Positions 3,234 to 43,622 of a stretch of 64,000 nt of DNA are shown here, one piece after another. The stretch's first letter is position 1. The number at the start of each line of letters is the position of its first letter. The notes under the pieces were generated by a model. The model saw nothing but the letters and a program-made list of their open reading frames with translations, did no database searches and was not told the origin of the DNA. The stretch covers positions 70,498-134,497 of the forward strand of contig CAMTXH010000006.1 of assembly GCA_947085655.1 (NCBI GenBank), in the 5' to 3' direction. A program made the translations under genes and the position numbers. The DNA comes from an uncultured Omnitrophica bacterium. Its GTDB lineage: Bacteria; Omnitrophota; Gorgyraeia; JACQQV01.

Positions 3234-3503
3234 ATGCCGATTAAAAAAGCAGCCCTCAAAAGGATGAAGAGCGACCGGAAGCTGAAGGCACGGAACAGCT
3301 GGGTCCTGAATGAACTGAAAACTCTTTCCCGAAAATTCGAAAAACTGATCGCCTCTAATAACCGGGAAGGAGCCCAAGCACTCTTCAAAGAGGTCAGTCG
3401 GAAATTCGATAAGGCCTTCTCCCGCGGCATTATTCACAAAAACAGGGCCTCCCGAAAGAAGGCCCGTCTTGCCAAGAGACTTTCCAAGTTTTTAGCGGCA
3501 TAG
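3234..3503 (+). CDS. rpsT: 30S ribosomal protein S20
   Basis: 89-aa basic protein (MPIKKAALKRMKSDRKLKARN...) matching S20. RBS AAGGAG lies 7 nt upstream. Confidence 0.9.
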   Translation: MPIKKAALKRMKSDRKLKARNSWVLNELKTLSRKFEKLIASNNREGAQALFKEVSRKFDKAFSRGIIHKNRASRKKARLAKRLSKFLAA

Positions 3504-11852: not shown

Positions 11853-11928
11853 GGGGCAGTGGTGCAGTTGGGAGCACACCTGAATGGCATTCAGGAGGTC
11901 AGGGGTTCGATCCCCCTCTGCTCCACCA
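11853..11928 (+). tRNA. tRNA-Ala (anticodon GGC)
   Basis: Hand-folded cloverleaf. Acceptor GGGGCAG/CTGCTCC with the G3:U70 alanine identity pair. Anticodon loop ATGGCAT. T-loop TTCGATC. CCA encoded. Confidence 0.9.
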
Positions 11929-12119: not shown

Positions 12120-12153
12120 CAATTTATCATAACATATTGGTGCATAAAAGAAA

Positions 12154-12181
12154 AGGAGCCGTATCAATCGGCTCCTTTTTT
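12154..12181 (+). terminator. rho-independent terminator
   Basis: Stem AGGAGCCG/CGGCTCCT with a 7-nt loop, followed by TTTTT. Confidence 0.7.
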
Positions 12182-12288: not shown

Positions 12289-12375
12289 GCCGAAGTGGCG
12301 GAATTGGTATACGCGCCGGTCTCAAAAACCGGTGGGGGCAACCCTGTGAGAGTTCGACCCTCTCCTTCGGCACCA
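12289..12375 (+). tRNA. tRNA-Leu (anticodon CAA), type II with long variable arm
   Basis: Acceptor GCCGAAG/CTTCGGC. Anticodon loop CTCAAAA. T-arm GAGAG-TTCGACC-CTCTC. CCA encoded. 87 nt. Confidence 0.9.
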
Positions 12376-12538: not shown

Positions 12539-15500
12539 TTAGACCTTGTTGAGGTAATCGACATACGCCTCGAAGTAATCCGGGATGACCGGGACAGGGT
12601 CCACATAAATCTTATGCGTGAGGATGGTGAGGAAGGATTTGATGTCTTCCAGGGCTTTCTGGGGATCAGCCGTGCTGACAAATTCGGCAGCCGTATTCAC
12701 CAAAAGAGGGGCAAGATTCAGATAACGGTCATCCCCACCTTTTCGGGGTTCGAAGACCACGAGACGGATACCGGGATTTGAAATTCTAAGGCGCTTCGCT
12801 CTAAGATATCGCTCCCACGCCTTCATCTGGTCCTCACTCGAGACAATGACCAGATTGGAATTTTCCCCAAGGCGTAGTTTAAGGTTGTCCTGAAGAAGGT
12901 TCACCCAGAGAAACTCTTCAATTTGAAATCGATACTGGAGGGGAGGATCATTCTGGTAACGCGCTGACTCTTTTGCATCACCGTAATTTTCCAGAATGTC
13001 ATAGGTGATGACGGCATAAAACTGGTCGCGCCGGAGATGGAACCTTGCCAAATAATTCTCTACCTCCTGCATGGTCACGGTGGGATCCTCGATTAAAAGG
13101 ACATGTTTGAAAACACTCTCTTCGTTATTGAGGGAGTTTCCGGTCTCCCGCGCAAGACGATCCAAAGCCCAAGAGAAACTCTCCCCCATATCCTCCTTTA
13201 ACAGGGAGGATGGAAAAACAAGAATAAACGCCTCTCCGGTTTCCTTTAATCTTTCGCTCGCTTCGCGCATGGCCGGACTGACAGGACGCCGATGGAGCGG
13301 TTCATACGTGGTAAGCCACTCCGGTGTTTTCGCTACATACCGCTCGGCACCGTCCCGAACCCGAATCGGCTCCGGCTGATAAACAACAAGGGCCCGGTTG
13401 TCTTTCCATTCCCTGTGGCTGGCCACTTCGGTCTCCTCCGACAGCCGGTCATTCCGGCGGCTGAGAATGAGCTTTGCTGGTTCGCCGTGGTCCGCCCATC
13501 CGGCTATCTGTTCGGCAAGCCACCGCCTCTGCCCATTGAGGTCGTATGCGATCCCGTCGTCTCCGGCAAGAACCACGCTCTGATCTCCTAAGGGGAGTTC
13601 TCCTTCCAGAAACCATGCTTCCTCGCGTAAATAGGGTCTTATTTTCCGGTCTCCGTAAGAATTGGTAAATCTCCATGAAGGATCCACCCCCTCTGCCCGT
13701 TCGAAGGCCTGGAGGGTTTCATGATAAATCCCTCCCTTTGAAAGGACAATGTTTCTCCCTTTCTCATCCAATGCAGAGTTCTGCTCGGGAGTGGTCAGCC
13801 GGATTTCCCCCTGATCCGCAATCATGAACCAGGCATCCCCTCTTCCGAATCCGGAGACTTTCCGCTGGTCCCCCTTCTTCCGGATAAAGGCAACGGCGGC
13901 GGTTGCGCCCGATTCCATTTGATCCGTCAGTTTCCGAAGTGCTCGATCCGTCGCCCGATGGACCTCCATCATATTTTCGCCATGTTCCCGAACGGCTGCT
14001 TCAAAAAGAGAGGGGAGTCTTTGCTTAATCAAATGCGCCGCCTGTTCGTCACGATGCCCATCGATCACAGCAATTAAATCTCCTTCAACCTTTCCCACCC
14101 TTACCGGATGAACAAGGACGCGACTCTCCTGCCCCTCCCGTCCCTTGCCGATATCGGCCACATAGCTGATCTTCCCGCCCGAGACGGCATCCGTCACCCC
14201 AAATTCGTGCTCCACATTCCAACTGTATCGCTCACCGTTAAAAAGCCAAAATCCGTTTACAAACCTGTGATTCTCCATCCGCCATCGGCCGTCCAGATTT
14301 TCCTCGAAAAGTTCGATTCCCTTTTGAAGTTGTGCCTCCGTATGAAGTTTGTGCCCGAGTTCCGGATGATGCGTATGTCCCGCTCGGACCATTGCCAGTT
14401 CTTCCTGTGCCTGCTCGAGCGCTTCTTGAATTTTCGCCTCCATCAAAAGGTCCACGTCCAGAGGGTTTTTGGTCGCACTCTTGGTTTTACTGAGAATATG
14501 CCTTAGCACCACCTCCAGTCGAAGGAGAACATCCCCAATAATATCATTTTCAGGGCCGGGACCGACTTTCCGGGTAAAGTGAATCAGACGCTCCCCTGCC
14601 TTAACCCGCTGTGCCACGATACTTCCAAAACCTAGATGGGTCTCTTTTCCGTCCTCTACCTCGAAAACGGTGTTTGTGCCGATAAAGGTCGTCTCAAGAA
14701 TGATTCTCCCGGTGGAATCGGGACGATCCAGGATCACCGTGGAGCCGCCCCCCCAGTTGGGGGCATTCGCCACTGTTTTGGTTTCTCCTTTAACCTTGAA
14801 GGTAATTGGGCGTGCAATGAGGTTCAACGCCCTACTGGCAAGGTGGTGGTTTGTGTAAAGTCCCGAGGCAATGACATTCACATGGAGTGCGCCGATACCC
14901 CGGTTGACCCCCGCCACCGAGTCGTCAAAATGGCTCCTAAAGACTGTTGCGTAGGGCTCAAGGAGATGATCTCTTCCGATATTGCTGAATCTTGAGAGAA
15001 AAAGACTCCCTTCCGTCCGATCCCCGATAAACGAATTTTCAACACGGCCCATCCGCAAGCGGACTTCGTCTCCGAGTTGTGAAACGTTCCTGTCGGTCGA
15101 ATCAATCCACATCCGGACAAGATTCTCTTTCTTTCCGATGGCCGCCTGCTTGATTCGGGAACCCCAGATAAAAGTTTCTTCACCGACTACCGTATCTATC
15201 AGATGGGAGCCGAAAATTTGCGCTCCTTTCCGGATAACCGTCTTTCCTTCCAAAATCACCTCCGGCCCGATGATCGCTTCTTCTTCAATTTCAACCTGAT
15301 CGCCGATAATTGCTGTCGGGTCGATATCGGCAATAGCACCGAATTCCTCAAGAGGATTGACTCTCCTTTCACCCTTCGTCGGCTCAAACGTCCCTGGAAG
15401 ATGCGCCTCCGTTAGGATCGGTTCATAGTCCGGCACCCGGTCCCGCGGGATTTTCGGATCGTTTTCAGGAAGGTCTTTGAAAAGAGTTTGGCGGTAATCC

Positions 15501-18500
15501 GATGCAGAAATGCCTTCCAATGAGGCGATTCTTTTTAGATCGAGCGCTTCATGAGTCCATGTGCCGTTCTCAAATTTCCAACGGGAGTCTTTTGTTCCAT
15601 TCTGATATCGCCACGCACCGCTATCGATATGGAGCCGATAGGCCTCCCGCCATTTTTCAAGGAGGGCGATCCGCTCAGGGTCCTGGTCATCCGTGAATTT
15701 TGCCCTTTCCTCTGCAAGCTCCGCCTCCACGAGTGCTTTCCCGGTTTCAAGCATCTCAACCGGAAAGTCGTCCACTTCCGGCTTTTTCTCATCGGGCAGA
15801 GCATCAATCATTTCCTGCATCAGGGCAAAGACTGTGTCGGGGCTTTCGGTAAAAAGGAAAGGAACAGAAGTCGCTTTCCGGCTCAAACCGAACTTTGCCG
15901 CACCCGGAAGTGCCACGCCCCAATCATCCCATGCCGGTTTCCGCCGAACAGGAGAGCCGATCATTGAAAAGGGAGTTGCATGCGTGAGATTCCGGTTGGC
16001 CATCAGTGTCAGGGGATCGGAAGAGGGTTGTCCTCCGGCAAGGGCGATCCACCGTAAATAAGGACCCAAAATTGAAAGAGGATCGACCAAGAGGTAACCA
16101 TGGGCGCTCGATTCCGAGCCGTCGATTCCCCTGATCCGGATAGGCGGCAAAAGCGTTTTCGGATCCCGCGGGACAATTTGAATCATTTCCTCTTCCTTAA
16201 ATTCTTCATAAAGACCGTGTTTATGCGCTTTGAGCGGATTCAAGGTGCCGAGGTAACTCGAATCAACCACGTTCCGTCCGATATGGGCAATCGCTGGAAG
16301 GTTAAAGGTTTTACGGAGATGGAATCTCCGTCCGTCAAAGCGGAGGGAGACGATTCGATTGCGATGGAGAACCGAATCGATAAAGGCTTGGGCATTGAGA
16401 CGGTAGCCATGGCCGAGCCATGCCTCGCTCACTTCAATCGGAAGTTCGTGGCTTCCTTCAATAGAAACGTCATCCTCCGTATGGACAAGGGTCATTTTTG
16501 TATGAAGGAGCCGGTTCTCTTTCCCGATTTCGCTATTTTGATAGACGCCGCTTTCAATTTCCGTCCTTAAGCCGACGGTTGTATTAACGAGTCTTGCGCC
16601 ATTCACCCGCGCTTCCGGACCGACCCGCGTCTGGCTACCGGAGACCGTATATTCCCTTTTTCCGGAGAAATCCTTCCGGTCGAAGGACCAGTCCTCAAAC
16701 TTTCCAGGTTTACCGGTCGTCTCCAAAACAGCGTGGGAGACAATAGCGCGGTCTCCGACCACGGCTCCCGAAACAAAACTCGAATCGACCGCGGAGTCAA
16801 CGCCGAGTTCCACGGCATGATCCTTTGTCGCCTGAATGTAACTTCTCCCGGTGATCCGGGCACCTTGCAAGATCACGATCAGCCCTTCCCGCGCATCAAA
16901 CACCACTTCATCCCCGATGGCTCCGGCCCGCTCCAGTCCGAAAATATTCCGCGGGTCACCCAAGATTTTGTAGGCCCCGTCTTTGGCGCTCCGCCGCAGT
17001 TCGCGAAGCTGTCTCCTCAAATCGCTCAACGCCGAAGCCAGTTCTTCGCCTCGCTCCGATCGTCTTTCATGGGGATTCAGCCGCGCAAAACTGCTTTCGT
17101 GGGAAGAAATGCTTCTCCTTAACTCCTTGATCCGGGTGTGGAGATACCGTTCGGCTTCATACCGCTTCGGTTTTTTGTATTTCCTTGGGCCGCGGTATCC
17201 CCCGTCCCGGGCTTCTCCGGTCAGTCCGTCGCGGGCATTGGCCACACGGAGGCGCAGATCATCCAACTCTCTGATCCGGTCAATGTTTCCGGCGTCCTTC
17301 TTCTCTTCCTCGATGAGTTGACCGGCCTCACCGAACAATTGCTTTCGTTCATCTCGGATGGCGCTCAGCCGGTTCTGCGCGACACCCCCTTTTTCTTCTC
17401 TTGCGAGTTCCTCCAAAGAGGTGATAATTGCCTCAACGCGGGCAACGCGATTCCCGCCATCCTCAGCGTCCGGCGTTAAGTCATACCGTTCGTTTATCAA
17501 CTCCATAATTTCTTCCTGAATATCCCAAAGGCGCTTTTCAATCTCCGGGGTTATCTCTTTTGACCTGAGTTCTTCGCCCTCCAACTCCAATGCTCTTATA
17601 CGTGTGTTGATGTTGCGAATCTCGCGCATCCGGCTGCCCCCCTCCGGCGCTGTAAGGGTGCCTGCGGAAGGATCCCAGTGAGTGAGGTTTGCAAAGTGAA
17701 TCTCCTCTCCCTCCCCGAATTCTTCGGTCTCATGGTCGTCCCCCAGGAAGTAATGGCCTTCGGGAATCAGAGGTTTCTTCCGGTAAACCGTGTGCAAAAC
17801 GCCGGTAATGAGGCCGTTTTCGTCCGCTTCCGGCTCTGCGCCGATCACCTCCCGGACTTCGACTCCCAATGCCTTGAGACTTTCCCGAATATCCTCTCTT
17901 TCAAAGAAAAGGCGCGCTGCCGGCGCAAAACTTCTGGTCAAAATGGTGAGCCGGACCTGCTCATGTCCCCCTCTCCGTTTGAAGGCCTTCACCCACTCCA
18001 CAAATCTTGGATTCAGGGAATACCTTTTGGACATCTCTTCAAAATCATCCGTCCTGAGGAGTCTCGCATACATATTGAGATACGCCTGCCAACTGGCTTC
18101 GCCCGGATTCTCCCTGACTTCGTCGAGTCTCCGGCGGTGTTCTTCATCCACCCACGCCGGGTCGACCCCGGTCTTCTTCACCCATTCCCGGTAAGGGATC
18201 TCCTCGGAAACCACCGTCCCCTCAAAGTCGGCAAAGATATCGTTTTCGGCATAAACTCTTTCGGAGCCATCAAAGGCATTCTCCCTTTCTCCCAAAAACT
18301 CGACCCGGAAGGCCTCTGCCCAAGGAGGATGGAAAGGGGGGATTTTTCCCTTTCCTCCCTTTTCCCCTTCACCTCGCATGACGATTTCCATACCGATACT
18401 CGCCATCTGTCTGGCACGGTAACGGGCCGCCTTTGCTCTCTTTTCGATCTCTGGATCGCCGCTTCTTACTTCAAGCGCCGTCTCAAACGGATAAATGGCG

Positions 18501-21445
18501 TTAAAATCCTCAATTTCAGGCGGAGGAAGAAAAGGAAGATAAATGCCTGTCTCTTTATGTCGGGTTGAATAGGAACGGATCGCCTGAATGCCTTCATGGT
18601 ACACCGCGCGGTGGGAAGGGTGAGGGTCGTTTCTACTGTTTAGAAAAAAGACGACCTCTTTTCCCTTGAGGTTGCCTCCAAAATGGCCCATCAAGAAATC
18701 TTCGAGATGCGATTCCAAAAGCCGACCCCCCTCTTCAACGATTTGTGCATCGGACCAGTCAGGATGGGCCTTGTATAATTGGTGCCCGAGAAGGTTTGGC
18801 TCCGGAAGATCAAGAACCCTGCCGGACTTTATCTCCTCTTTAGCCCGGATGTCGGCAATGTCGCCCCGATCTTCCACTCCCGGTATGGCGGCGCCCGTAG
18901 AGGGAGAGAGAACAAAAATCCGGATCTTCACACCCGCCTTCGCTGCAAGGTGTGCCGTGGCACCCATGAGAACCGCCACATCATCCGGATGGGTGATAAT
19001 GGCGATGATCGGTGTCCCCTTCCTTCGCATCTCCTGGAACTTCCCGCTCCCCCAGATCAGAGGTCTGTTGGGAAGAAAACGATAGGTGCCTCCCTTCAGG
19101 TAGGCAAGCGGGAAGATTTCGGCATTCTGAACTCCAAGGTAGAGTCCGTTTTCCCTCCCCCGCGCCCGGGCCATCTCATCATAGGGCACGCGAAGCAGTT
19201 GGCTTTTGTGCGACTTAATTCCTTTCTCTTTGATGTCGGCTATGTTGTTGGTGTAAGGGACGATGATGCCCGGCTTGTCGAAGAGCTCGGAGGATTGATA
19301 AAAAACGCCCAGCGGAGACTCATTCCATTCCGAAACAGCCCGGCGGACGGCATTTTCAAGGGGAAAAAGATGAAGGGGTAAAAAAACAATGTCGAATGGA
19401 GAAGCCCGAATTTCTTTTTCGAGGGCCTCAAGTCCCTTTTGATCCTCTCCGAAAGCTACTTCCCTGGAAATTTGAAGATGTCGGAAATCATTTTTCCTTC
19501 CCCGAAGCCCGCTCAAAAAACTTCCTGCGTAAAAATCGGCATCCCGTTCGCCGATTTGTACCACCAGGGTCTTCATTCCCTCTGGAATAGGACTCTGATT
19601 GACATGGGGGAGTGTTTCGTCTTTAAAAAGAAACCTCGAGTTGGATTGAAGGAGATTCCGGATGCCTTCAAAGAATTCCCGTTTTCCCCCATCTTGTGCG
19701 CGACGACCGTCCAGTTCACCCCGGATAAGGCCTGTTGCGCCCCGTTTGAGCGCGGGGATTTGGCGCAGATTCTCCCCGGCCGGTCCCGCCTTCTCTTTCA
19801 GAATCTTATGATAAAGTTCAAGATCCGAGGCCTCCGTAATCTTCGGTGCAATCACCATATAGGACAAATTCTGTTCCTTCAAGAGTTTCGTAATCTGGGC
19901 GGTGTGGAATCCGCCTGCAATCAAGACGGCCAGGTCCACGCCTTCCTCCCGAACTTTACTGAGAGTATTGGCCACAAGGGCTTCATCCCGCTTCATCCCG
20001 ACTTTGTAGAAGGACTCGAGAAGTTCCAAATTGTCATCGATCACAGCAGTGTCCTGTGGAAAAGAGAGGGTTACATGATACTGATTCATTTTTTCAATCA
20101 GAAACGGCTTCCAAGTTTGTACGAGGAAGGTCTGGCGGTTTGCCTGATACGTCTCAAGGTCATCGGGTGAGAGATTGAGTTCCAGAAAGCTCAGGAGGAG
20201 ATCAAGACGGTCTGAAAGTTCAGAAAGTTCTTGTTCATCCGGCGAGGTGTAAAGATGGCTCTTAATTTCCTTTTCAAGAACGCGTCCTTCCCGGAAAAGT
20301 TCCACATGGTCCCGCCCGGCATAGAGAATGACATAATCGATGTACCGGTCCAGATCGCCGTGGGAACCGGGAGCCGGATCGTTTTTCTGGAGAACTTCCT
20401 TGAGAAACCCATAATACTCCCCGGGCCCTGTTTCGTTCATTTTATATTTGAGCCCCTTTTCGGCAAGAAGGGTAAGTTCCTCCTTGGAAAGAACCTGTGT
20501 CAACTTCCCGATGAGTGCCTGGTGCTGGCCGTCCACCTTTTCAAAATTGATGCTCTTCTCAAGGAGAGAGGCCTGCAGGAAATTGTCGAAATTGGGGTAT
20601 TGGAAAAGAGGGATGCTGTAACGCCGGGCCAGATCTCCCAAATACTGATAATATTCCACCGCCTGAATCTTCCCTTTGTCATATTCCTCTTTTTTCCGCT
20701 CAAGGGCTTTTATCTCCGGGGAGTAGATGTCGACTTTCAGAGTGTCTGCAATCGCCTCAAGCGCCCGGGCCTTTTCCAAGGATTTTGCCTTGATTCCATC
20801 CACTTTGAAGAAGATGCCCAAGTTCTGGTCGTAAAGCGCTTCATTCTCGATGCCCCAGAGGGTAATCGGTTTGTCCGAAACAATATCAAGGTATTCCTCC
20901 CCCGAAATTTTTCCGAGTTTCAGGTATTTCTCGGCAACCTCCAGACGCCTTTCCGGCGTCGCTTCGGTCCGCAAAAAGGAAAGGCTCGTATCTCCGCTTC
21001 CCCCCTCCACAAGAATCAGACGGAGACCATGCTCCTTGACGAGTTGGCCCAGGATGTTCGCGAGGTTTTTTTGCGCTTCATAATGGACATGAACATCCTG
21101 AATATGGATGATCAGGGGAAGGGGATTTCCTTCGTAGGTTTCGGAAATCCGGCCGTATTCCGGAGGGATCTGGATGGCCTGGGCGAGCGTCTTGGGACGC
21201 TCGCCGAGAAGCGTTAAAGGATCGACGGCCGGGGTAGACTTGACCGGTTTGATATCGGAGCGGGCGGTGACTGTCTCGGTCTTTGAATCGAACGCCTTTT
21301 TTTCCTCAACGGTCTGGAAGATGCTTTTCGCATGGAGAGGGACGTCGGAGAGGAAAAGGAAAGAAACGGCCAAACCCAAAAGCAAAAATCTTTGCCGCTT
21401 CCCTCTTCTAGTTGGTCGAAACGCCATTCCCTTTTCACCACCCAT
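12539..21445 (-). CDS. giant secreted multidomain protein (2,968 aa)
   Basis: Uninterrupted 8.9-kb ORF with signal peptide. Contains an N-module homologous to the 862-aa protein at 22981-25569 (a possible Tiki/TraB/ChaN-like two-His fold), an LmbE/PIG-L-like segment, a long coiled-coil, left-handed beta-helix repeats and a PP2C-like segment. Supporting motifs are listed under the giant-protein domain finding. Confidence 0.85.
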   Translation of the reverse strand: MGGEKGMAFRPTRRGKRQRFLLLGLAVSFLFLSDVPLHAKSIFQTVEEKKAFDSKTETVTARSDIKPVKSTPAVDPLTLLGERPKTLAQAIQIPPEYGRISETYEGNPLPLIIHIQDVHVHYEAQKNLANILGQLVKEHGLRLILVEGGSGDTSLSFLRTEATPERRLEVAEKYLKLGKISGEEYLDIVSDKPITLWGIENEALYDQNLGIFFKVDGIKAKSLEKARALEAIADTLKVDIYSPEIKALERKKEEYDKGKIQAVEYYQYLGDLARRYSIPLFQYPNFDNFLQASLLEKSINFEKVDGQHQALIGKLTQVLSKEELTLLAEKGLKYKMNETGPGEYYGFLKEVLQKNDPAPGSHGDLDRYIDYVILYAGRDHVELFREGRVLEKEIKSHLYTSPDEQELSELSDRLDLLLSFLELNLSPDDLETYQANRQTFLVQTWKPFLIEKMNQYHVTLSFPQDTAVIDDNLELLESFYKVGMKRDEALVANTLSKVREEGVDLAVLIAGGFHTAQITKLLKEQNLSYMVIAPKITEASDLELYHKILKEKAGPAGENLRQIPALKRGATGLIRGELDGRRAQDGGKREFFEGIRNLLQSNSRFLFKDETLPHVNQSPIPEGMKTLVVQIGERDADFYAGSFLSGLRGRKNDFRHLQISREVAFGEDQKGLEALEKEIRASPFDIVFLPLHLFPLENAVRRAVSEWNESPLGVFYQSSELFDKPGIIVPYTNNIADIKEKGIKSHKSQLLRVPYDEMARARGRENGLYLGVQNAEIFPLAYLKGGTYRFLPNRPLIWGSGKFQEMRRKGTPIIAIITHPDDVAVLMGATAHLAAKAGVKIRIFVLSPSTGAAIPGVEDRGDIADIRAKEEIKSGRVLDLPEPNLLGHQLYKAHPDWSDAQIVEEGGRLLESHLEDFLMGHFGGNLKGKEVVFFLNSRNDPHPSHRAVYHEGIQAIRSYSTRHKETGIYLPFLPPPEIEDFNAIYPFETALEVRSGDPEIEKRAKAARYRARQMASIGMEIVMRGEGEKGGKGKIPPFHPPWAEAFRVEFLGERENAFDGSERVYAENDIFADFEGTVVSEEIPYREWVKKTGVDPAWVDEEHRRRLDEVRENPGEASWQAYLNMYARLLRTDDFEEMSKRYSLNPRFVEWVKAFKRRGGHEQVRLTILTRSFAPAARLFFEREDIRESLKALGVEVREVIGAEPEADENGLITGVLHTVYRKKPLIPEGHYFLGDDHETEEFGEGEEIHFANLTHWDPSAGTLTAPEGGSRMREIRNINTRIRALELEGEELRSKEITPEIEKRLWDIQEEIMELINERYDLTPDAEDGGNRVARVEAIITSLEELAREEKGGVAQNRLSAIRDERKQLFGEAGQLIEEEKKDAGNIDRIRELDDLRLRVANARDGLTGEARDGGYRGPRKYKKPKRYEAERYLHTRIKELRRSISSHESSFARLNPHERRSERGEELASALSDLRRQLRELRRSAKDGAYKILGDPRNIFGLERAGAIGDEVVFDAREGLIVILQGARITGRSYIQATKDHAVELGVDSAVDSSFVSGAVVGDRAIVSHAVLETTGKPGKFEDWSFDRKDFSGKREYTVSGSQTRVGPEARVNGARLVNTTVGLRTEIESGVYQNSEIGKENRLLHTKMTLVHTEDDVSIEGSHELPIEVSEAWLGHGYRLNAQAFIDSVLHRNRIVSLRFDGRRFHLRKTFNLPAIAHIGRNVVDSSYLGTLNPLKAHKHGLYEEFKEEEMIQIVPRDPKTLLPPIRIRGIDGSESSAHGYLLVDPLSILGPYLRWIALAGGQPSSDPLTLMANRNLTHATPFSMIGSPVRRKPAWDDWGVALPGAAKFGLSRKATSVPFLFTESPDTVFALMQEMIDALPDEKKPEVDDFPVEMLETGKALVEAELAEERAKFTDDQDPERIALLEKWREAYRLHIDSGAWRYQNGTKDSRWKFENGTWTHEALDLKRIASLEGISASDYRQTLFKDLPENDPKIPRDRVPDYEPILTEAHLPGTFEPTKGERRVNPLEEFGAIADIDPTAIIGDQVEIEEEAIIGPEVILEGKTVIRKGAQIFGSHLIDTVVGEETFIWGSRIKQAAIGKKENLVRMWIDSTDRNVSQLGDEVRLRMGRVENSFIGDRTEGSLFLSRFSNIGRDHLLEPYATVFRSHFDDSVAGVNRGIGALHVNVIASGLYTNHHLASRALNLIARPITFKVKGETKTVANAPNWGGGSTVILDRPDSTGRIILETTFIGTNTVFEVEDGKETHLGFGSIVAQRVKAGERLIHFTRKVGPGPENDIIGDVLLRLEVVLRHILSKTKSATKNPLDVDLLMEAKIQEALEQAQEELAMVRAGHTHHPELGHKLHTEAQLQKGIELFEENLDGRWRMENHRFVNGFWLFNGERYSWNVEHEFGVTDAVSGGKISYVADIGKGREGQESRVLVHPVRVGKVEGDLIAVIDGHRDEQAAHLIKQRLPSLFEAAVREHGENMMEVHRATDRALRKLTDQMESGATAAVAFIRKKGDQRKVSGFGRGDAWFMIADQGEIRLTTPEQNSALDEKGRNIVLSKGGIYHETLQAFERAEGVDPSWRFTNSYGDRKIRPYLREEAWFLEGELPLGDQSVVLAGDDGIAYDLNGQRRWLAEQIAGWADHGEPAKLILSRRNDRLSEETEVASHREWKDNRALVVYQPEPIRVRDGAERYVAKTPEWLTTYEPLHRRPVSPAMREASERLKETGEAFILVFPSSLLKEDMGESFSWALDRLARETGNSLNNEESVFKHVLLIEDPTVTMQEVENYLARFHLRRDQFYAVITYDILENYGDAKESARYQNDPPLQYRFQIEEFLWVNLLQDNLKLRLGENSNLVIVSSEDQMKAWERYLRAKRLRISNPGIRLVVFEPRKGGDDRYLNLAPLLVNTAAEFVSTADPQKALEDIKSFLTILTHKIYVDPVPVIPDYFEAYVDYLNKV

Positions 21446-21447
21446 CC

Positions 21448-22959
21448 TTAGAGTCTTCGGAGTGTTTCCCGGAATTTGCGGACTGCCTCAATCGCTTCCT
21501 CCTCGAATCCGGTGGAAAGGACCTCGACCGGAATGGTCCAGGTGAGTCCCTCCTCGATTCTCGCAATCAAGGCACTGTTTAGATGATCAAGGCCGACCTC
21601 CGTATCCTTGACCGGCAAATCAAACGTAAAAGCAACGGAATTCTCTCGCCCTTCAAATAGCCTGGCAACTTCCCTTCTGGCAAAAATCAGGTTTTTCCGT
21701 TCGGGGGAAGGGCCGCCTTTTTCCTCGAGTTTTTGCTGAATGTAGCTCTCAATGCCGGCCACTTCCGATAAACGTTCGGCCGGGACGAACATCCCAAAAT
21801 CCTCCGGTGTCAGGTCCACGGGAAGACCCGTCTTCTTTGAAGCAAACGCGTTCATCTCGTTGAAAAAGTTGCTTGTCTTTTCCGCATCCATGGCTTGAAG
21901 CACCCCCTCACGCGGGGTCAGCGGCAGGAAAGCGGTCACAATCCCGCTTCCGACTTTTCCGAAACGGGGTTCCTGCCGGACGCGTCTCCAGAGGGCTGCC
22001 CATGCATCGAAACTGTAATAGTAATAAGCGGGTTCGGACACCAAGACAACCGGTGCGTTAACCCTTTTCAACTGGTTTAAAATCACACCCGAAAGCGGGC
22101 TGTCCACCGTCGGAAAGAGCTTCGGACCGACATTTTCAAGTGCGGAAAGCCGCGCTTCGGCCTCGATAATTTGCTCTTGAAGAGCAGTCTCTTCTTCGGG
22201 ATGGGTCGCAAAATAATCCGAATTGATGCCGAGGGCTGTTTTGAAATCCCGCCGAAGTCTCTGCGCATCTTTGACCCGGTCGGAAAACGTGCTTCCGGCT
22301 CCTTTTCCATATAAAAGAAAGGGGGCGTCAATGTGACTTAATATTCTAACAGAAGCGGCAAGGTAGTCCGGGAGTTCTTTCTGGCGGGCCAAGAGAGCCC
22401 CTAAAACATCCTCCGGGATGGCTCGCCGCGTATCGACACGGACATGGACACGAATCAAATCGCCTGTTTCGGAACTGGAAATTTTGACTTCAACCGGCTT
22501 CCGGTCCGGAAGGGAACGCTCCCCTAACGCAAAAGTCACTTCGGAACTGGCAGTCTCAGGATGGGAACTCGACACGCGCCCCTCGAATATTCTTTGAAGC
22601 TGTGCCAACGTCAGCGCTTCTCTCTCTTTTAAGAGGCCCTGCCCCATGTACCGTTCCATGATATCCTCATAATCGGCTGAATCAACATGTCTTCTTCGTG
22701 CTTCACCGCTCAAGGGGACATTGGTTTCGCGATACCGTTTCTCCCGGTCATCCCCGAGACGGTTCGCGCCGTCCCGAAGGGAGAGGGCCTGTTCCGCGGC
22801 AATCAAATCATTTTGGAGATTCTGCATGAGGCCGCCGTCCTTCTCCGCCATGGGAGGCCGGTAATGATCCTCAGCCGGGGCACCCCAGGCCGGCATGACG
22901 GCAAAGAAAATTCCCGCGATCAGCATCGAAATCATTTTTTGAAGAAATGAGCGATTCAT
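21448..22959 (-). CDS. secreted protein, paralog of the C-terminal module of the 862-aa protein
   Basis: Signal peptide. Shares AEKDGGLMQNLQ, FGKxGSG, VDLTxEDFG and a ...LRETL C-terminal block with 22981-25569. Confidence 0.8.
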   Translation of the reverse strand: MNRSFLQKMISMLIAGIFFAVMPAWGAPAEDHYRPPMAEKDGGLMQNLQNDLIAAEQALSLRDGANRLGDDREKRYRETNVPLSGEARRRHVDSADYEDIMERYMGQGLLKEREALTLAQLQRIFEGRVSSSHPETASSEVTFALGERSLPDRKPVEVKISSSETGDLIRVHVRVDTRRAIPEDVLGALLARQKELPDYLAASVRILSHIDAPFLLYGKGAGSTFSDRVKDAQRLRRDFKTALGINSDYFATHPEEETALQEQIIEAEARLSALENVGPKLFPTVDSPLSGVILNQLKRVNAPVVLVSEPAYYYYSFDAWAALWRRVRQEPRFGKVGSGIVTAFLPLTPREGVLQAMDAEKTSNFFNEMNAFASKKTGLPVDLTPEDFGMFVPAERLSEVAGIESYIQQKLEEKGGPSPERKNLIFARREVARLFEGRENSVAFTFDLPVKDTEVGLDHLNSALIARIEEGLTWTIPVEVLSTGFEEEAIEAVRKFRETLRRL

Positions 22960-22980: not shown

Positions 22981-25569
22981 TTATAAGTTGATGAGTGTCT
23001 CCCGGAGGGTCCGGAGGGCCGCCTCCGCATCTTCGGAAACAGTCCAGACTTTCGCCTCAATGAAAGTGCTCCGTCCGACCGCGAACGATAAAAGTTCCTC
23101 CAGATTCCGATATCCGACCTGATCCCCGACCTGATTCGATACAAACGGCGACTCAACGGTGAAGGCAACAAAGGAAGGAAGCGACGGAGCGAGTCTCTCG
23201 GCCACCTGCTTTCTGGCAAACATCCGGGTAAGAGGGCGTCCCGCTTCCTCCTGGATATGCCGGCTCGTTGCTTCGTGGTCCGAAAGGAGTGCCGGTGGAA
23301 CCACAACGCCGAAATCCTCAAGTGTCAGGTCCACATTCTTTCCGGTGTATCTTTTGGCAAATGCGCTCAGTATCTCAAGTGCTTTGGAGATCTTCTCCAA
23401 ATCAACACCCCTAAGGGCATCTCCCGGCTGATTAGAAATGGCGTATGGAAGAAGGGCTGAAATGACTCCGCTTCCTTTTTTCCCGAACTCTGGATCCTGC
23501 CTGCGATACCGCCAATAGTCCACGTAAAGGTCCGGATTAAAAGCAAAGTAAGCCAAGTCGTATCCCACAACAATGGGGTTATCCACATTCCTTGCCTGCG
23601 CCAAGACATTCGGTGAAAGGAGGTCGGATGTCAGAAAGATGTTGCGGCCGATCAGAAGATCGTCGCTCAAACGAGTCCCCCCGTCACCCGCTTGACCGGT
23701 CAGGTCGTTCCGTTCGTCTATCAAGTCTCTAATCTTCTGCTGTACCGCCGCAATTTTTGCCCTTTCGGGATCGGCTGCCGGGAGTGCGAGAAGTCTTTGT
23801 TCTTCTCTTCCCAGTTCGCCGATTTCGCGAATGACTTCGTCCAAATAATCCTCGCCTTCATCGTCCTCACGGACCCCCCCGTCGCGGACCGTGACAGCGG
23901 CAATCTCATCCTGAAGATTTTGCATGAGCCCGCCGTCTTTCTCGGCGGTTGGCTGGCGGAGTTGCCCCACGATTAAATGCGATTTTTCCTTCAAAATGGT
24001 GTAATAAAGTTCCGGATTTCCCGCTTCCGTGATTCGGGGCGAAATGACAATATGGGAAATACCCTGCTCTCTCAAAATCTGTGTCAGCCCCGGCGTATGA
24101 AATCCTCCTGTAATCAGGACGGCGAACGTGACTTTCTCCTTTTTCATTTCCCTCATCGAATTTTCAACAAATGCCACATCCCGCGCCTGCGCAATCCGGT
24201 AAAAGCGATCCATCGTCTTGAGATGCTCATCGACGCTGCCGACTTCCTGCGGAATGGCAATCTCCAAACGGTGTTCGTTGATTTTACCCTCCAGATAAGG
24301 GATAAATGTCTTGACGGAAAATCTCAGGCGGTTTTTCTGGTAAAGGGCGAAGTCATCCGGTGAAATTTTGAGCCGGAAAAGGCCCGAAAGAAGCCTCAGG
24401 TGTTTCGAAATGGCGGCGAGCTGCCTTTCGTCTTCGGAAGTAAAGAGTTTTTCCCGAACCGCCTGTTCCAGCCGGTCCCCCTCCTTGAAAAGTTCCGAGT
24501 GCTGGATATCCCCATATAAGGAAAGATAGCGGACATATTTTTCAAGATTCGGGTAATCTTCAAGGGCCACGCTCTTTTCGGAAGCCACATTCGCCACATG
24601 ACCGTAGTATCGTCGCTGGGAAACTTTCCCTTCCTGATAGGCGAGACTCTGACTCACCAATAGATCCAATTCCTCCTGCGTCAGGTCATCCGTCAATGTT
24701 TCGATGAGCCGGTTCCGCTCCTCGTCAACCTGTCCGAAATCAATGGCCTTCTCCAGTCGGTAGGCCTGAAGGAGTCGCTCCACGTTCGGATATCCCTCCG
24801 CCCCGCCGTAAGCGGCCAGGTATTCGTAATAGTCCACGAGTTCCATCTGTTCCGTCTCGTATGCCTCGCGCATCTTCTCAAGGTCGAGATGGGCGGAACT
24901 GTAAATGGTTTTTTTGAGTGTTTCCACCGCTTCCTGGAGGCGGTCGAGCTGGTCTAGTGCCACTTTTTTCAGTCGTTCGACCTCCAGAAAGACCCGGAAA
25001 TTCTCCTCGTAAAGCTCCGCGTCTTCAATCCCCTGCCGGATGATCGGATAATCGCTCACCAGTTCCAGATATTCGTCCCCCGCAATGAGTCCCTTCCGGA
25101 GATACCGTTCTGCCACCTCCGTCCGTGCCTCTTTTGAGCCGAGTTTCCGTAGCGAAGAAAGATCCCCCCGGATATCCCCCCCTTCCACAAGAATTAACTT
25201 CACGTCGTTGTTCCGGATGAGAGACTCCAGAATGGAAGCAAGGTTTTTCTGTGCTTCGTAGTGCACATGGGCATCTTGAATATGGATCAGAGTCTGTTCG
25301 GAGTTTCCTTCGTAGATATCGACGATCCGGCCGTAGGCCTCCGGGATTTGAATCTCACCTAATCCGAGGGAACGCAAAAGAAACGCTTCTTTTTGGGGAG
25401 AGGTTGTCTGAATCGGATCCGGCAGCACAGGTGCCACGACCCGCGCCTGCTGAAAGATGCTTCTCTCAGGCGGATCGGCCCATGCCATGGTTCCGGCACC
25501 GACTACACCGAGCACGATAAGAAGCAAAAGGCTCTTTTCTTTTATTAGCTTCTTCTTTATACCCTTCAC
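22981..25569 (-). CDS. secreted two-module protein (N-module shared with the giant protein, C-module shared with the 503-aa protein)
   Basis: Signal peptide. About 550 aa are collinear with giant-protein residues ~40-590 (IHIQDAHVHYEAQKNLA...ILVEGG...ITGGFHT...ELYYTILKEK). Confidence 0.8.
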   Translation of the reverse strand: MKGIKKKLIKEKSLLLLIVLGVVGAGTMAWADPPERSIFQQARVVAPVLPDPIQTTSPQKEAFLLRSLGLGEIQIPEAYGRIVDIYEGNSEQTLIHIQDAHVHYEAQKNLASILESLIRNNDVKLILVEGGDIRGDLSSLRKLGSKEARTEVAERYLRKGLIAGDEYLELVSDYPIIRQGIEDAELYEENFRVFLEVERLKKVALDQLDRLQEAVETLKKTIYSSAHLDLEKMREAYETEQMELVDYYEYLAAYGGAEGYPNVERLLQAYRLEKAIDFGQVDEERNRLIETLTDDLTQEELDLLVSQSLAYQEGKVSQRRYYGHVANVASEKSVALEDYPNLEKYVRYLSLYGDIQHSELFKEGDRLEQAVREKLFTSEDERQLAAISKHLRLLSGLFRLKISPDDFALYQKNRLRFSVKTFIPYLEGKINEHRLEIAIPQEVGSVDEHLKTMDRFYRIAQARDVAFVENSMREMKKEKVTFAVLITGGFHTPGLTQILREQGISHIVISPRITEAGNPELYYTILKEKSHLIVGQLRQPTAEKDGGLMQNLQDEIAAVTVRDGGVREDDEGEDYLDEVIREIGELGREEQRLLALPAADPERAKIAAVQQKIRDLIDERNDLTGQAGDGGTRLSDDLLIGRNIFLTSDLLSPNVLAQARNVDNPIVVGYDLAYFAFNPDLYVDYWRYRRQDPEFGKKGSGVISALLPYAISNQPGDALRGVDLEKISKALEILSAFAKRYTGKNVDLTLEDFGVVVPPALLSDHEATSRHIQEEAGRPLTRMFARKQVAERLAPSLPSFVAFTVESPFVSNQVGDQVGYRNLEELLSFAVGRSTFIEAKVWTVSEDAEAALRTLRETLINL

Positions 25570-25852
25570 TTTACACCATACACCTTACACCGTTTTATTG
25601 GGGTGGCGGGCGGAATAGGTTGGGAAGGATGGGGGTCCAGGCCCAAGCCCTATCCCACCTGCCATCCCAAAGGGATTGCAAGTTTATAAAAGTTCTGAAG
25701 AAACTGGTTAAAAAAAGAACCCCCGATCCTGGGAAAAGTATATCACACCCCAGGGGGGATGTCAAGGTATGAAAGTCAACTTAAAAAAACATGTAACGTG
25801 TTTAAAACTAAATAGTTAAGTAAATTTAAAAACGACATTTTGTCTCGATTAA

Positions 25853-42221: not shown

Positions 42222-43622
42222 ATGGCCATGAACAAAATCCAAAGGGCCAACTGGGTGCATGAGCTTCTTTTAAAACTTCCCCCCGAAGAGCAACGAAACC
42301 TCCTTCGCCGGGTCCGACAGGTCAGTCACGAGGAGAGAATCCTGTATGAAAAATCGAGGGGAGGGGAGAAGGTGATCGACCTTTTTGTCCGGCCCCGTCT
42401 CCTCTATCCATATCAGTTGGCCTACTGCCGGAGCATCATCCTGGAACTTCAGAAGGCGATCGAGACGATTTACTTCAATTATTTCCATGAACCGATGTTT
42501 CAGGAAATTCTTCCTTTCCACGGCATTGAAAGGGAGCATTTTGTCCGCTTTTATGCCGCCCAGGGCCGCGCCCAAACCGTCATGAGCCGGTGGGATGCCG
42601 TTTCCGATTATAGCGGCGCGAACTGGAAAAGGCACCTTCGGTTTGTCGAATGGAACGGCGTCGGAATCGGCGGGATTTACTATGCGGTTGCGACAGAAGC
42701 AATTATGCGGCGGTCTCTCCTCCCGCTCCTTAAGAAATTGCGTCCCGATCTTCAGATTGTGCGGATGACCGATGCCCGCGAGTTGCTTCTGCGGCAGATC
42801 CTCCGCCATGCCAAAAAGGTGCGTATTTCCTTAAAACGCGTCGCTTTGGTGGAGGAACTCCGTGACCCCGGCGGGCCGCTCGAATTCGAAGAGTTCCGCG
42901 ATTACTTCAAAAAAAGGGGGCTCGATGCGCTCCTTTCGGATGCGCGAGATCTCTCTTTAAGGAAGGGAAAGATTTTTGCGCGCGGAAAAGAGGTCCAGAT
43001 GATTTACCGGGATACGGAGCTTGAAGAAGCCCTTTATATGGAAAAAAAGAAAGAAAACGTCGATGCCTTTAAGGAGGCGTTCCGCCGGAATGCCGCCGTC
43101 TCTTCCTTAATGGGAGAACTTGACCATAAAAGCGCTTTGGAGGTTCTCACCCGGCCCGATCTTGCGGGCACCTTTACCCCGAAGCAGCGCAAAATCTTCC
43201 GCGCCCATGTCACCTGGACAAGGTTGCTTCGCCCCATCAAGACCACCGACCCCTACGGTCGGACGGTCGACCTCTATACGTATGCAAGACGCAAAAAAGA
43301 AACATCGGTGATTAAACCGAACCGGGAATTCGGAGGGGTCGGGGTTATCTTTGGAAGAAAACTTTCACAAAGGGAGTGGGAAAAAGCTTTGGCGAAGGCG
43401 GTCCGCCATCCGGGCACATGGGTGATTCAACATGAGGCCCAAAACCACCCGAAAAAATTTGTCACTTCCCGGAGGGGCAAACTTCAGGAGGAGACGATCA
43501 ATGTCGTCGACGGCCACATCGTCACCCCGGACGGGATCTCCATCATCGGCCGCGGCGCCCGCCATGAGGTTGTCAATGTTGCAAGACAGGGCGGCCTCGT
43601 CGCCACACTCGTGTATCGATAG
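42222..43622 (+). CDS. hypothetical protein, possibly ATP-grasp-like (circularly permuted/GspS-like)
   Basis: 466-aa ORF. Family assignment is tentative. The last 83 bp of the gene are duplicated at 45071-45153. Confidence 0.35.
   Translation: MAMNKIQRANWVHELLLKLPPEEQRNLLRRVRQVSHEERILYEKSRGGEKVIDLFVRPRLLYPYQLAYCRSIILELQKAIETIYFNYFHEPMFQEILPFHGIEREHFVRFYAAQGRAQTVMSRWDAVSDYSGANWKRHLRFVEWNGVGIGGIYYAVATEAIMRRSLLPLLKKLRPDLQIVRMTDARELLLRQILRHAKKVRISLKRVALVEELRDPGGPLEFEEFRDYFKKRGLDALLSDARDLSLRKGKIFARGKEVQMIYRDTELEEALYMEKKKENVDAFKEAFRRNAAVSSLMGELDHKSALEVLTRPDLAGTFTPKQRKIFRAHVTWTRLLRPIKTTDPYGRTVDLYTYARRKKETSVIKPNREFGGVGVIFGRKLSQREWEKALAKAVRHPGTWVIQHEAQNHPKKFVTSRRGKLQEETINVVDGHIVTPDGISIIGRGARHEVVNVARQGGLVATLVYR

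Follow-up and report, generated by a model that had tools for sequence, protein, structure and literature searches.

A TIKI/TraB-like head module and repeated junction motifs suggest a polyprotein organisation for a giant protein of Omnitrophota

The DNA analysed here is a stretch of 64,000 nucleotides from an uncultured Omnitrophica bacterium (assembly GCA_947085655.1, contig CAMTXH010000006.1, positions 70,498 to 134,497), hereafter called the window. On its minus strand, at 12539..21445, lies a giant open reading frame (ORF) that encodes 2968 amino acids (aa) from an ATG start, without any in-frame stop over 8.9 kb. The encoded protein consists of a signal-like N-terminus, a head module with the predicted fold of the TIKI/TraB hydrolases and a series of enzyme-like units, at whose borders a short peptide motif recurs (Table 1). 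We propose, with about even confidence, that this is a modular polyprotein led by a signal peptide, which would be cut at its junctions, probably by its own head. The architecture of the protein, the fold of the head with its conserved residues of catalytic type, the family size, the location of the motif at the borders of cassettes, and the fusion and fission of genes at the motif are established below, and from these features we infer cleavage.

A homologue search of 5.8 billion proteins returned 78 relatives with lengths of 1.6-5.1 thousand aa; the few with source names belong to Omnitrophota, Elusimicrobia or Endomicrobia. The head module (aa ~85-550) is the sole part common to all 78 homologues, and it is always located at the N-terminus, directly behind a signal-like segment. 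Beyond four close orthologues, the relatives match the query protein over this module only. The enzymes encoded behind it in the relatives include phosphoglucomutase, phosphofructokinase, hexokinase, glycogen synthase, PEP synthase and CsrA, as well as Ser/Thr kinases, methyltransferases, helicases, Lon and pseudouridine synthase. The head sequence gave no significant match in Pfam, NCBIfam or the PDB and was placed by fold search only. An AlphaFold model based on a 17-sequence alignment, with a predicted local distance difference test (pLDDT) score of 87, presents a small α/β core with the parallel β-sheet expected of a TIKI fold, split by a helical insert of ~300 residues. PF04187 ('Tiki superfamily, ChaN') is matched weakly by nine of the 17 head members (best E 0.004), and no Pfam model of the TIKI/TraB/ChaN/EreA superfamily scores above threshold on the head.

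Six residues, His119, Glu147, Arg486, Gly511, Gly512 and His514, are conserved in all 78 heads, and Asp117 is conserved in 94% of them. Judged from alignment and spacing, these residues would supply the set of two histidines and two acids (acid-x-His, Glu and a distal His) together with the conserved Arg of the superfamily. Asp117-x-His119, Glu147 and His514 of the head run parallel to Glu3900-x-His3902, Glu3930 and His4030, which form the 2His/2Glu set of RRSP (PMC6254334), and the 28-residue spacing between His and Glu is identical to that between His85 and Glu113 of Bcr135 (PMC6254334). The second GxxH motif of the superfamily is present in the head (GGFH, 511-514) and the first is represented by QDVH, so that one GxxH is found rather than two. 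The TIKI/TraB-PrgY-GumN/ChaN/erythromycin-esterase superfamily includes the site-specific endopeptidases TIKI, acting on Wnt, and RRSP, acting on Ras/Rap1. The head differs from it in falling below the threshold of every superfamily Pfam model, in having QDxH instead of the first GxxH, in the large helical insert in its core, and in being fused to, or encoded beside, its presumed substrates. Sequence and model together point to a new branch of the superfamily rather than a member of a named family, with a predicted hydrolytic activity.

A profile search with the head over 1.84 billion cluster representatives retrieved 10,341 proteins, 7,235 of them at E <= 1e-30. Among the best 150 of the 10,341 matches, the head starts within the first ~190 residues, and within ~100 in all but one, while the protein length ranges from 502 to 6039 aa. 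At the DNA level, at least 120 loci in GTDB genomes match a degenerate pattern for IHIQDAHxN; most lie in metagenome-assembled genomes (MAGs) of Omnitrophota, and some genomes contain several. At ~10,000 clusters at 50% identity, the head enlarges the TIKI/TraB superfamily by a very large branch that had no annotation. An Omnitrophota-type head is found in many third-party MAGs with the label 'uncultured Planctomycetia' (L011, L013, L028, L032, L034-L036, L039, L040 and other third-party annotation (TPA) bins, and GCA_964374045.1); as taxonomy, this label is probably too coarse or mistaken.

The hydropathy of the giant protein peaks at aa 20-38, ahead of the head, and a like layout is seen in nearly all 78 relatives, the calls being made by eye from the arrangement of n-, h- and c-regions together with hydropathy. 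The basic n-region, the hydrophobic core and the small residue at -1 predict export. An initial annotation of this DNA, made without database searches, had described the protein as a secreted scaffold, and a Sec-type N-terminal signal or anchor, so judged, is present. Just behind this segment, a short conserved motif, KSIFQT (aa 40-45; 21311-21328 on the minus strand), also occurs at the N-termini of P0002-P0005 and in many relatives, in the form RSIF[RQ] in the query clade; a second group of relatives has [FL]W.ERR at this place. Its role may lie in sorting or in membrane topology.

The units behind the head are bordered by a short motif. In the query protein, DG[GA/S] follows Ala/Val-x at six places, with the DG at positions 585, 1059, 1329, 1414, 1489 and 2698. 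The junction motif A[KR]DG[GA] is also found in P0002-P0005 and in both genes upstream of the giant gene, where AEKDGGLMQNLQ occurs twice. Over 35 DG[GA] sites from the clade and the operon partners, Ala occupies position -2 in 23, Arg or Lys position -1 in 22 and Arg or Lys position +5 in 21. The codons used at the junctions vary from site to site; selection and conservation therefore act on the peptide. A reading of the motif at the DNA level, as an internal ribosome-binding site or a recombination site, was ruled out by the same difference in codons. When P0001-P0005 are cut at the motif sites, homologous blocks begin and end at the cuts: those shared with P0003 and P0005 start at junction motif 1, P0003 contains an inserted phosphoglucomutase (PGM) unit, P0004 lacks the PIG-L unit, and the PP2C unit of P0005 stands isolated between two motifs. 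A conserved motif is thus repeated at the unit borders of this clade.

The two Pfam-less genes upstream of the giant gene carry the same elements, and on their sequence features both belong to its system. The three genes form a compact block with spacings of 21 nt and 2 nt, the stop of the second gene lying 2 nt before the ATG of the giant gene. The head of the 862-aa protein encoded by the first gene is 42% identical to that of the giant protein (hmmsearch E 7e-159). Both upstream proteins contain an X domain of ~230 aa, Pfam-dark and common to four proteins at 35-43% identity. Two related genomes (L003/L004) have one gene for the head and another for the X domain, and the 862-aa gene corresponds to both fused at the motif. 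In this split form, the head gene ends immediately behind the module, the X gene opens with a signal peptide of its own and then the motif, and the free head adjoins free proteins composed of signal peptide and motif. Since the motif is kept in fused and free units alike, it belongs to the N-terminal leader of each unit.

Repeated motifs of other kinds occur in other lineages. In 15 of the 78 members, an exact motif of 4-5 residues, such as GAR[LM]A, RSE[LAV]R, RTSP or SGAAP, is repeated 4-13 times, with p-values from 1e-9 to 1e-35; one of 170 shuffled controls reached even 1e-7. Close inspection of six proteins with such motifs places the first site immediately past the head in each. Pfam domains do not span a motif site and often start 12-24 residues past one, and MraZ in P0041 ends exactly at one. 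The motif classes follow the clades of the head-module tree. Internal twin-arginine (Tat)-like signals are placed in a related manner: of seven convincing cases, four or five begin at a distance of 2-8 aa behind a motif, where chance would put ~2% of them by a rough estimate. From their sequences, the units with such signals appear to be whole former proteins including their export signals. As markers of unit starts, internal hydrophobic segments show no general pattern in the relatives. The repeated junction motif is proven for some sub-lineages, including the query clade, and not for the whole family.

What would be the function of a motif placed in this way? In the mechanism that we favour, the Sec-type signal or anchor would lead the hydrolase head, and the cassettes behind it, each introduced by A[KR]DG[GA], would comprise an LmbE deacetylase, a HAD-like unit, short charged spacers, a β-helix acyltransferase-like part with PP2C, and a C-terminal unit. 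The motif would be a processing site, at which the chain is cut into separate enzymes. The head is the most likely protease and might cut both its own chain, in cis, and the neighbouring proteins with signal peptide and motif, in trans. By analogy, the trimming of the Wnt N-terminus by TIKI and the cutting of Ras at one site by RRSP offer precedents for the head as an endopeptidase.

Alternatively, the protein could remain uncut as a membrane-tethered multi-enzyme assembly line, with the motif serving as a flexible hinge or docking peptide. This is the scaffold of the initial annotation; the evidence favours a cassette-built polyprotein over a static scaffold. The cassettes do look related through amino-sugar chemistry, given the LmbE deacetylase, the GlmU/LpxA/LpxD-like blocks and the phosphoglucomutase family unit in P0003, and multi-enzyme giant proteins have been so interpreted (10.64898/2026.06.07.730766). 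Hinges, however, seldom show conservation at five positions while their codons vary, and the motif is kept straight after the signal peptide of single-domain proteins, in which no hinge is required. Moreover, the units exist as separate genes in sister genomes, and the Tat signals that follow motifs in relatives are sensible only with a free N-terminus. We regard an uncut assembly line as unlikely.

A further possibility is that the motif is processed by another protease, the head being an esterase or amidase directed at the envelope or at prey, a PrgY-like peptide binder, or an anchor to the membrane or the cell surface. The superfamily of the head includes erythromycin esterases, ChaN and TraB/PrgY; several motif classes place Arg or Lys at P1 (AR/DGG, GAR/LA and xR/SELR, the slash marking the presumed cut), which would suit a trypsin- or kexin-like enzyme; and for the larger giants of Omnitrophota, peptidases of the C39 and S8 families have been put forward. 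Yet the conserved neighbourhood contains no protease gene, the head is the sole constant partner of the cassettes, and stand-alone heads adjoin genes for signal-peptide and motif proteins. We think that processing by a separate enzyme is improbable.

The cassettes themselves were compared with known families. The initial annotation recognised an LmbE/PIG-L-like segment, and this assignment is confirmed: PF02585 matches aa 815-955 at 39.1 bits against a gathering score of 28.2 (50-59 bits in orthologues), and both the (A)HPDD and the HxxH signatures are present, as THPDD (818-822) and HPSH (942-945), which we take, from MshB/LmbE, to be the zinc/catalytic motifs. A PDB search with the region gave weak matches to diacetylchitobiose deacetylase, and de-N-acetylase activity is predicted. 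In the LmbE-like half-domain that precedes it, GERDAD stands in place of AHPDD and KSHKSQ is kept; a degenerate half before an intact PIG-L domain suggests an old tandem duplication with one copy dead. The possible HAD-like unit is a singleton, present within the clade only in the query protein, and has no match in the PDB.

For the ~250-aa charged coiled coil that had been described next, the charge stands and the single long coil does not. Asp, Glu, Lys and Arg make up 43% of aa 1290-1492, whereas the runs free of Gly and Pro are just 20-31 aa long and are interrupted by junction motifs at DG 1329, 1414 and 1489. This sequence pattern is that of a chain of short helical spacers. Of the two β-helix stretches proposed, the second is supported, with NCBIfam matches to GlmU/LpxA/LpxD at E 1.8e-7 to 1e-3 over aa 2032-2143, and with LpxA, GlmU and LpxD at E 1e-7 when a clade profile is compared with structures; the first has sub-threshold matches only (TIGR03991 at E 3e-4, and LbH_EIF2B in P0004). 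The Pfam hexapeptide models (PF00132 and relatives) reach 15.8 bits on the query, under the 27-bit cut-off. An AlphaFold model of aa 1489-2416 from four sequences is unreliable (pLDDT 44), with short repeated strands visible. The conserved region between the two blocks (aa ~1641-2029) has no family or PDB match.

The PP2C-like segment finds its support in the clade. The query segment alone has no Pfam match, but PF00481 is found in P0003, P0004 and P0005 at 57, 41 and 30 bits (cut-off 20.3), and a five-sequence clade profile matches PP2C structures at E 1e-9. The query retains DGH (2462-2464), GDDG (2628-2631) and DN (2682-2683). Its set of metal-binding Asp residues (RxxxED, DGH, DG, DN) is incomplete, the Asp of RxxxED being Ser in the query (REGQES, aa 2436-2441, window 14123-14140, minus strand) and in P0002, and Asp (REGQED) in P0003-P0005. 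The segment is a PP2C homologue by predicted fold, and the loss of one metal-site Asp suggests a weakened or inactive phosphatase; its activity is therefore doubtful. The C-terminal unit has no Pfam or PDB match, and a homologue search with this unit alone came back empty, without even the parent protein, probably owing to a word-index limit. Profile searches, which the initial annotation had named as a check of its motifs, thus place PIG-L above the Pfam threshold in the query itself, and PP2C and the second β-helix through the clade profile while they stay below that threshold in the query alone. Three of the four segments in the initial annotation thus stand, and most of its domain assignments were correct. 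It mentions neither the head nor the A[KR]DG[GA] motif, nor the membership of the upstream genes in the same system.

In which compartment would processing take place? Export is predicted from sequence, while the left-handed β-helix (LbH) acyltransferases, PP2C, and the kinases and RNA enzymes of relatives, with their cofactor needs, and the Tat signals of relatives suggest a cytoplasmic setting, in the cell itself or in a host. In a further reading, the protein would be a secreted multi-effector toxin of the MARTX kind, which enters a host or prey cell and is processed inside it, with its enzymes acting on the host. In favour of this are the Sec-type signal, reports of an episymbiotic or predatory life in this lineage, cassettes made of cytoplasm-type enzymes, a gene for a PilT-like ATPase ~7 kb away in conserved synteny, and a resemblance of the head to the effectors RRSP and HopBA1. 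Modules for translocation or receptor binding were not recognised, however, and the locus is syntenic among housekeeping genes and not island-like. This toxin model is a variant of the polyprotein explanation that differs in location only, its delivery is a conjecture, and we consider it highly improbable.

Several observations weigh against a polyprotein cut by its own head. The predicted export conflicts with domains that require acetyl-CoA, ATP or phosphoprotein substrates. The case for cleavage draws on sequence, and the signal-peptide and topology calls were made by eye. Most family members are without an exact repeated motif: of 92 additional long members, scanned as a second set, two have one, and in one of these two the motif, HExGH, probably marks metalloprotease repeats and not junctions. 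DGG is not enriched over the family as a whole (58 observed versus 75 expected), the motif being specific to the clade. Esterases and the haem-binding protein ChaN belong to the TIKI/EreA superfamily as well, so that a head of this fold is not necessarily a protease, and its first GxxH is replaced by QDxH. Finally, the congruence between motif classes and head tree could reflect plain shared ancestry.

The giant ORF is a real gene. A reading as an assembly or gene-calling artefact that unites separate genes is suggested by nothing beyond the length of the ORF and its origin in a metagenome bin, and no support for it was found. The identical 2968-aa protein is encoded in GCA_964374045.1 (contig CAYJWX010000019.1) and in a Logan assembly made independently from run ERR4904390; two more places are similar. 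Orthologues of 1986-3467 aa stand at the same chromosomal position in other genomes, and they keep the order head, PIG-L, β-helix, PP2C and C-terminal unit. Because the same protein is present in independent assemblies and its orthologues are syntenic, and with 8.9 kb free of in-frame stops, a chimera is excluded for practical purposes; the artefact reading was ruled out on the identity of the protein between independent assemblies.

The surroundings of the giant gene are ordinary housekeeping DNA, with a conserved order of MnmE, PilT-like ATPase, DUF212, YkuD, AccA, two or three Pfam-less genes, the giant gene, LeuRS, ComEA and ComEC. Between the giant gene and LeuRS, tRNA-Ala(GGC) (11853-11928) and tRNA-Leu(CAA) (12289-12375) lie on the opposite, plus strand, with a bidirectional terminator-like hairpin (12149-12181) between them. 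Elsewhere in the window, a 466-aa ORF without Pfam match (42222-43622, plus strand) is surrounded by housekeeping genes.

Table 1. Features of the giant protein, its upstream genes and selected relatives (window coordinates unless a relative is named)
Feature	Residues (aa)	Coordinates	Strand	Remarks
Signal peptide or signal anchor	1-40	21326..21445	-	Basic n-region RPTRRGKRQR, hydrophobic FLLLGLAVSFLFL, then VPLHA/KSIFQ
Head module	~85-550	19796..21193	-	TIKI/TraB/EreA/ChaN-fold hydrolase core (predicted), interrupted by ~300-aa helical insert
Junction motif 1, AQDGG	583-587	19685..19699	-	Disordered linker after head; preceding model residues pLDDT < 50
Degenerate LmbE-like half-domain	~625-790	19076..19573	-	Secondary alignment stretch to C-terminal part of diacetylchitobiose deacetylase; weak
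PIG-L/LmbE deacetylase domain	~812-1010	18416..19012	-	PF02585
Junction motif 2, AFDGS	1057-1061	18263..18277	-	
Possible HAD-like unit	~1070-1260	17666..18238	-	DFEGT 1073-1077; weak NCBIfam TIGR01488 match, E 0.009, aa 1070-1219
Charged helical spacer units	~1280-1491	16973..17608	-	Carry junction motifs 3-5
Junction motifs 3-5, AEDGG, ARDGG, AKDGA	1327-1331, 1412-1416, 1487-1491	within 16973..17608	-	
Probable first β-helix block	~1495-1640	16526..16963	-	Sub-threshold matches only
Conserved region between β-helix blocks	~1641-2029	15359..16525	-	Kept in P0002-P0004
Left-handed β-helix/hexapeptide acyltransferase-like block	~2030-2300	14546..15358	-	Profile matches
PP2C-like phosphatase domain	~2430-2695	13361..14158	-	Clade profile and orthologue Pfam matches
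Junction motif 6, VRDGA	2696-2700	13346..13360	-	Same border conserved in P0002, P0003, P0004
C-terminal unit	2701-2968	12542..13345	-	Homologous unit in P0002-P0004, beginning exactly at junction motif
First operon gene	862 by ORF, 848 in NCBI call	22981..25569	-	Signal peptide, paralogous head, AEKDGG junction, Pfam-dark X domain
Second operon gene	503	21448..22959	-	Signal peptide, AEKDGG/LRDGA motifs, X-type domain, no head
X domain, 862-aa protein	629-862	22981-23680 (approx.)	-	
X domain, 503-aa protein	255-503	21448-22197 (approx.)	-	
X domain, relative L003		L003 6990-7964		
X domain, relative L004		L004 7115-7981		
Promoter-like site TTGACA-17-TATACT		25737..25765	-	TG extended; upstream of three-gene block; consensus scan only, 11/12 matches
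Internal Tat signal, P0041	1372-1400			
Internal Tat signal, P0037	2220-2250			
Internal Tat signal, P0049	3342-3370			
Internal Tat signal, P0055	3855-3885			
Internal Tat signal, P0046	~3423-3460			
Internal Tat signal, P0032	~90 past head			

Giant multi-enzyme proteins of Omnitrophota with a signal peptide or transmembrane (TM) segment have been described by West-Roberts et al. 2023 (10.1101/2023.11.21.568195) and by Nielsen & Lui 2026 (10.64898/2026.06.07.730766). Hence the presence of several enzymes on one exported chain, which the initial annotation found unusual, had been reported before for this phylum. These two preprints deal with proteins of at least 10,000 aa, some above 30,000 aa, and name C39/S8 peptidase or SecA-like domains; both suspect post-translational cleavage with the cleavage points unknown, and both note the paradox between export and metabolic content. 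The protein described here resembles those giants in its lineage, in its N-terminal signal/TM segment and in carrying many unrelated cytoplasm-type enzymes on one chain (PGM, glycosyltransferases, HAD, kinases, methyltransferases). It differs from them in its length of 3 thousand aa, in its unannotated TIKI/TraB-like head and in its explicit repeated junction motif. In the giants of at least 10 thousand aa, a TM helix is predicted about every 370 residues (10.64898/2026.06.07.730766). This spacing is close to the unit length here, and some of the helices may be retained signal peptides of units.

Other polyprotein systems offer partial parallels. In MARTX toxins, a very large exported chain carries strain-variable effector cassettes, which are freed by a built-in protease cutting the linkers between them (described in part in PMC6254334). 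The likeness lies in a large exported chain with several variable enzyme cassettes, for which cutting is a prediction in the present case. The inositol hexakisphosphate-activated cysteine protease domain, type I secretion and the glycine-rich repeats flanking the effectors have no counterpart here, and the head, unlike the MARTX protease, is TIKI-like, N-terminal and behind a Sec-type signal. With the polyproteins of viruses (picornavirus, potyvirus), it shares a lineage-specific short motif between units, which co-varies with the encoded candidate protease, and units in fixed stoichiometry from one ORF; it differs from them in being a cellular chromosomal gene in a housekeeping neighbourhood, with another protease fold and with cleavage that is presumed. 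Full-text literature searches found no paper on this head module or these junction motifs. The protein itself is a further case of a known phenomenon, while its head-plus-junction organisation is new and makes the question of processing testable.

Extended to the whole family, the proposal is a tentative one, which we consider possible and on balance doubtful. Thousands of genes in Omnitrophota, Elusimicrobia and Auribacterota might encode polyproteins, in which a TIKI-like head would cut lineage-specific junctions (A[KR]DGG, GARLA, RSELR, RTSP and others) and free ordinary enzymes, some of them Tat-exported by their own retained signals. Giant genes would then be substitutes for operons, and part of the 'transmembrane helices' of the giants would be signal peptides of units.

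On the question whether ultra-small, host-dependent bacteria use their giant proteins whole or in pieces, the main study reports that it was held up for want of known cleavage points. The head and the lineage-specific motifs give the first concrete candidate cut sites for such giant bacterial proteins. The resulting predictions are specific, namely exact peptides to seek in existing proteomes and three or four residues to mutate. In addition, the motifs offer a defined way of splitting giant ORFs into units for annotation and structure prediction.

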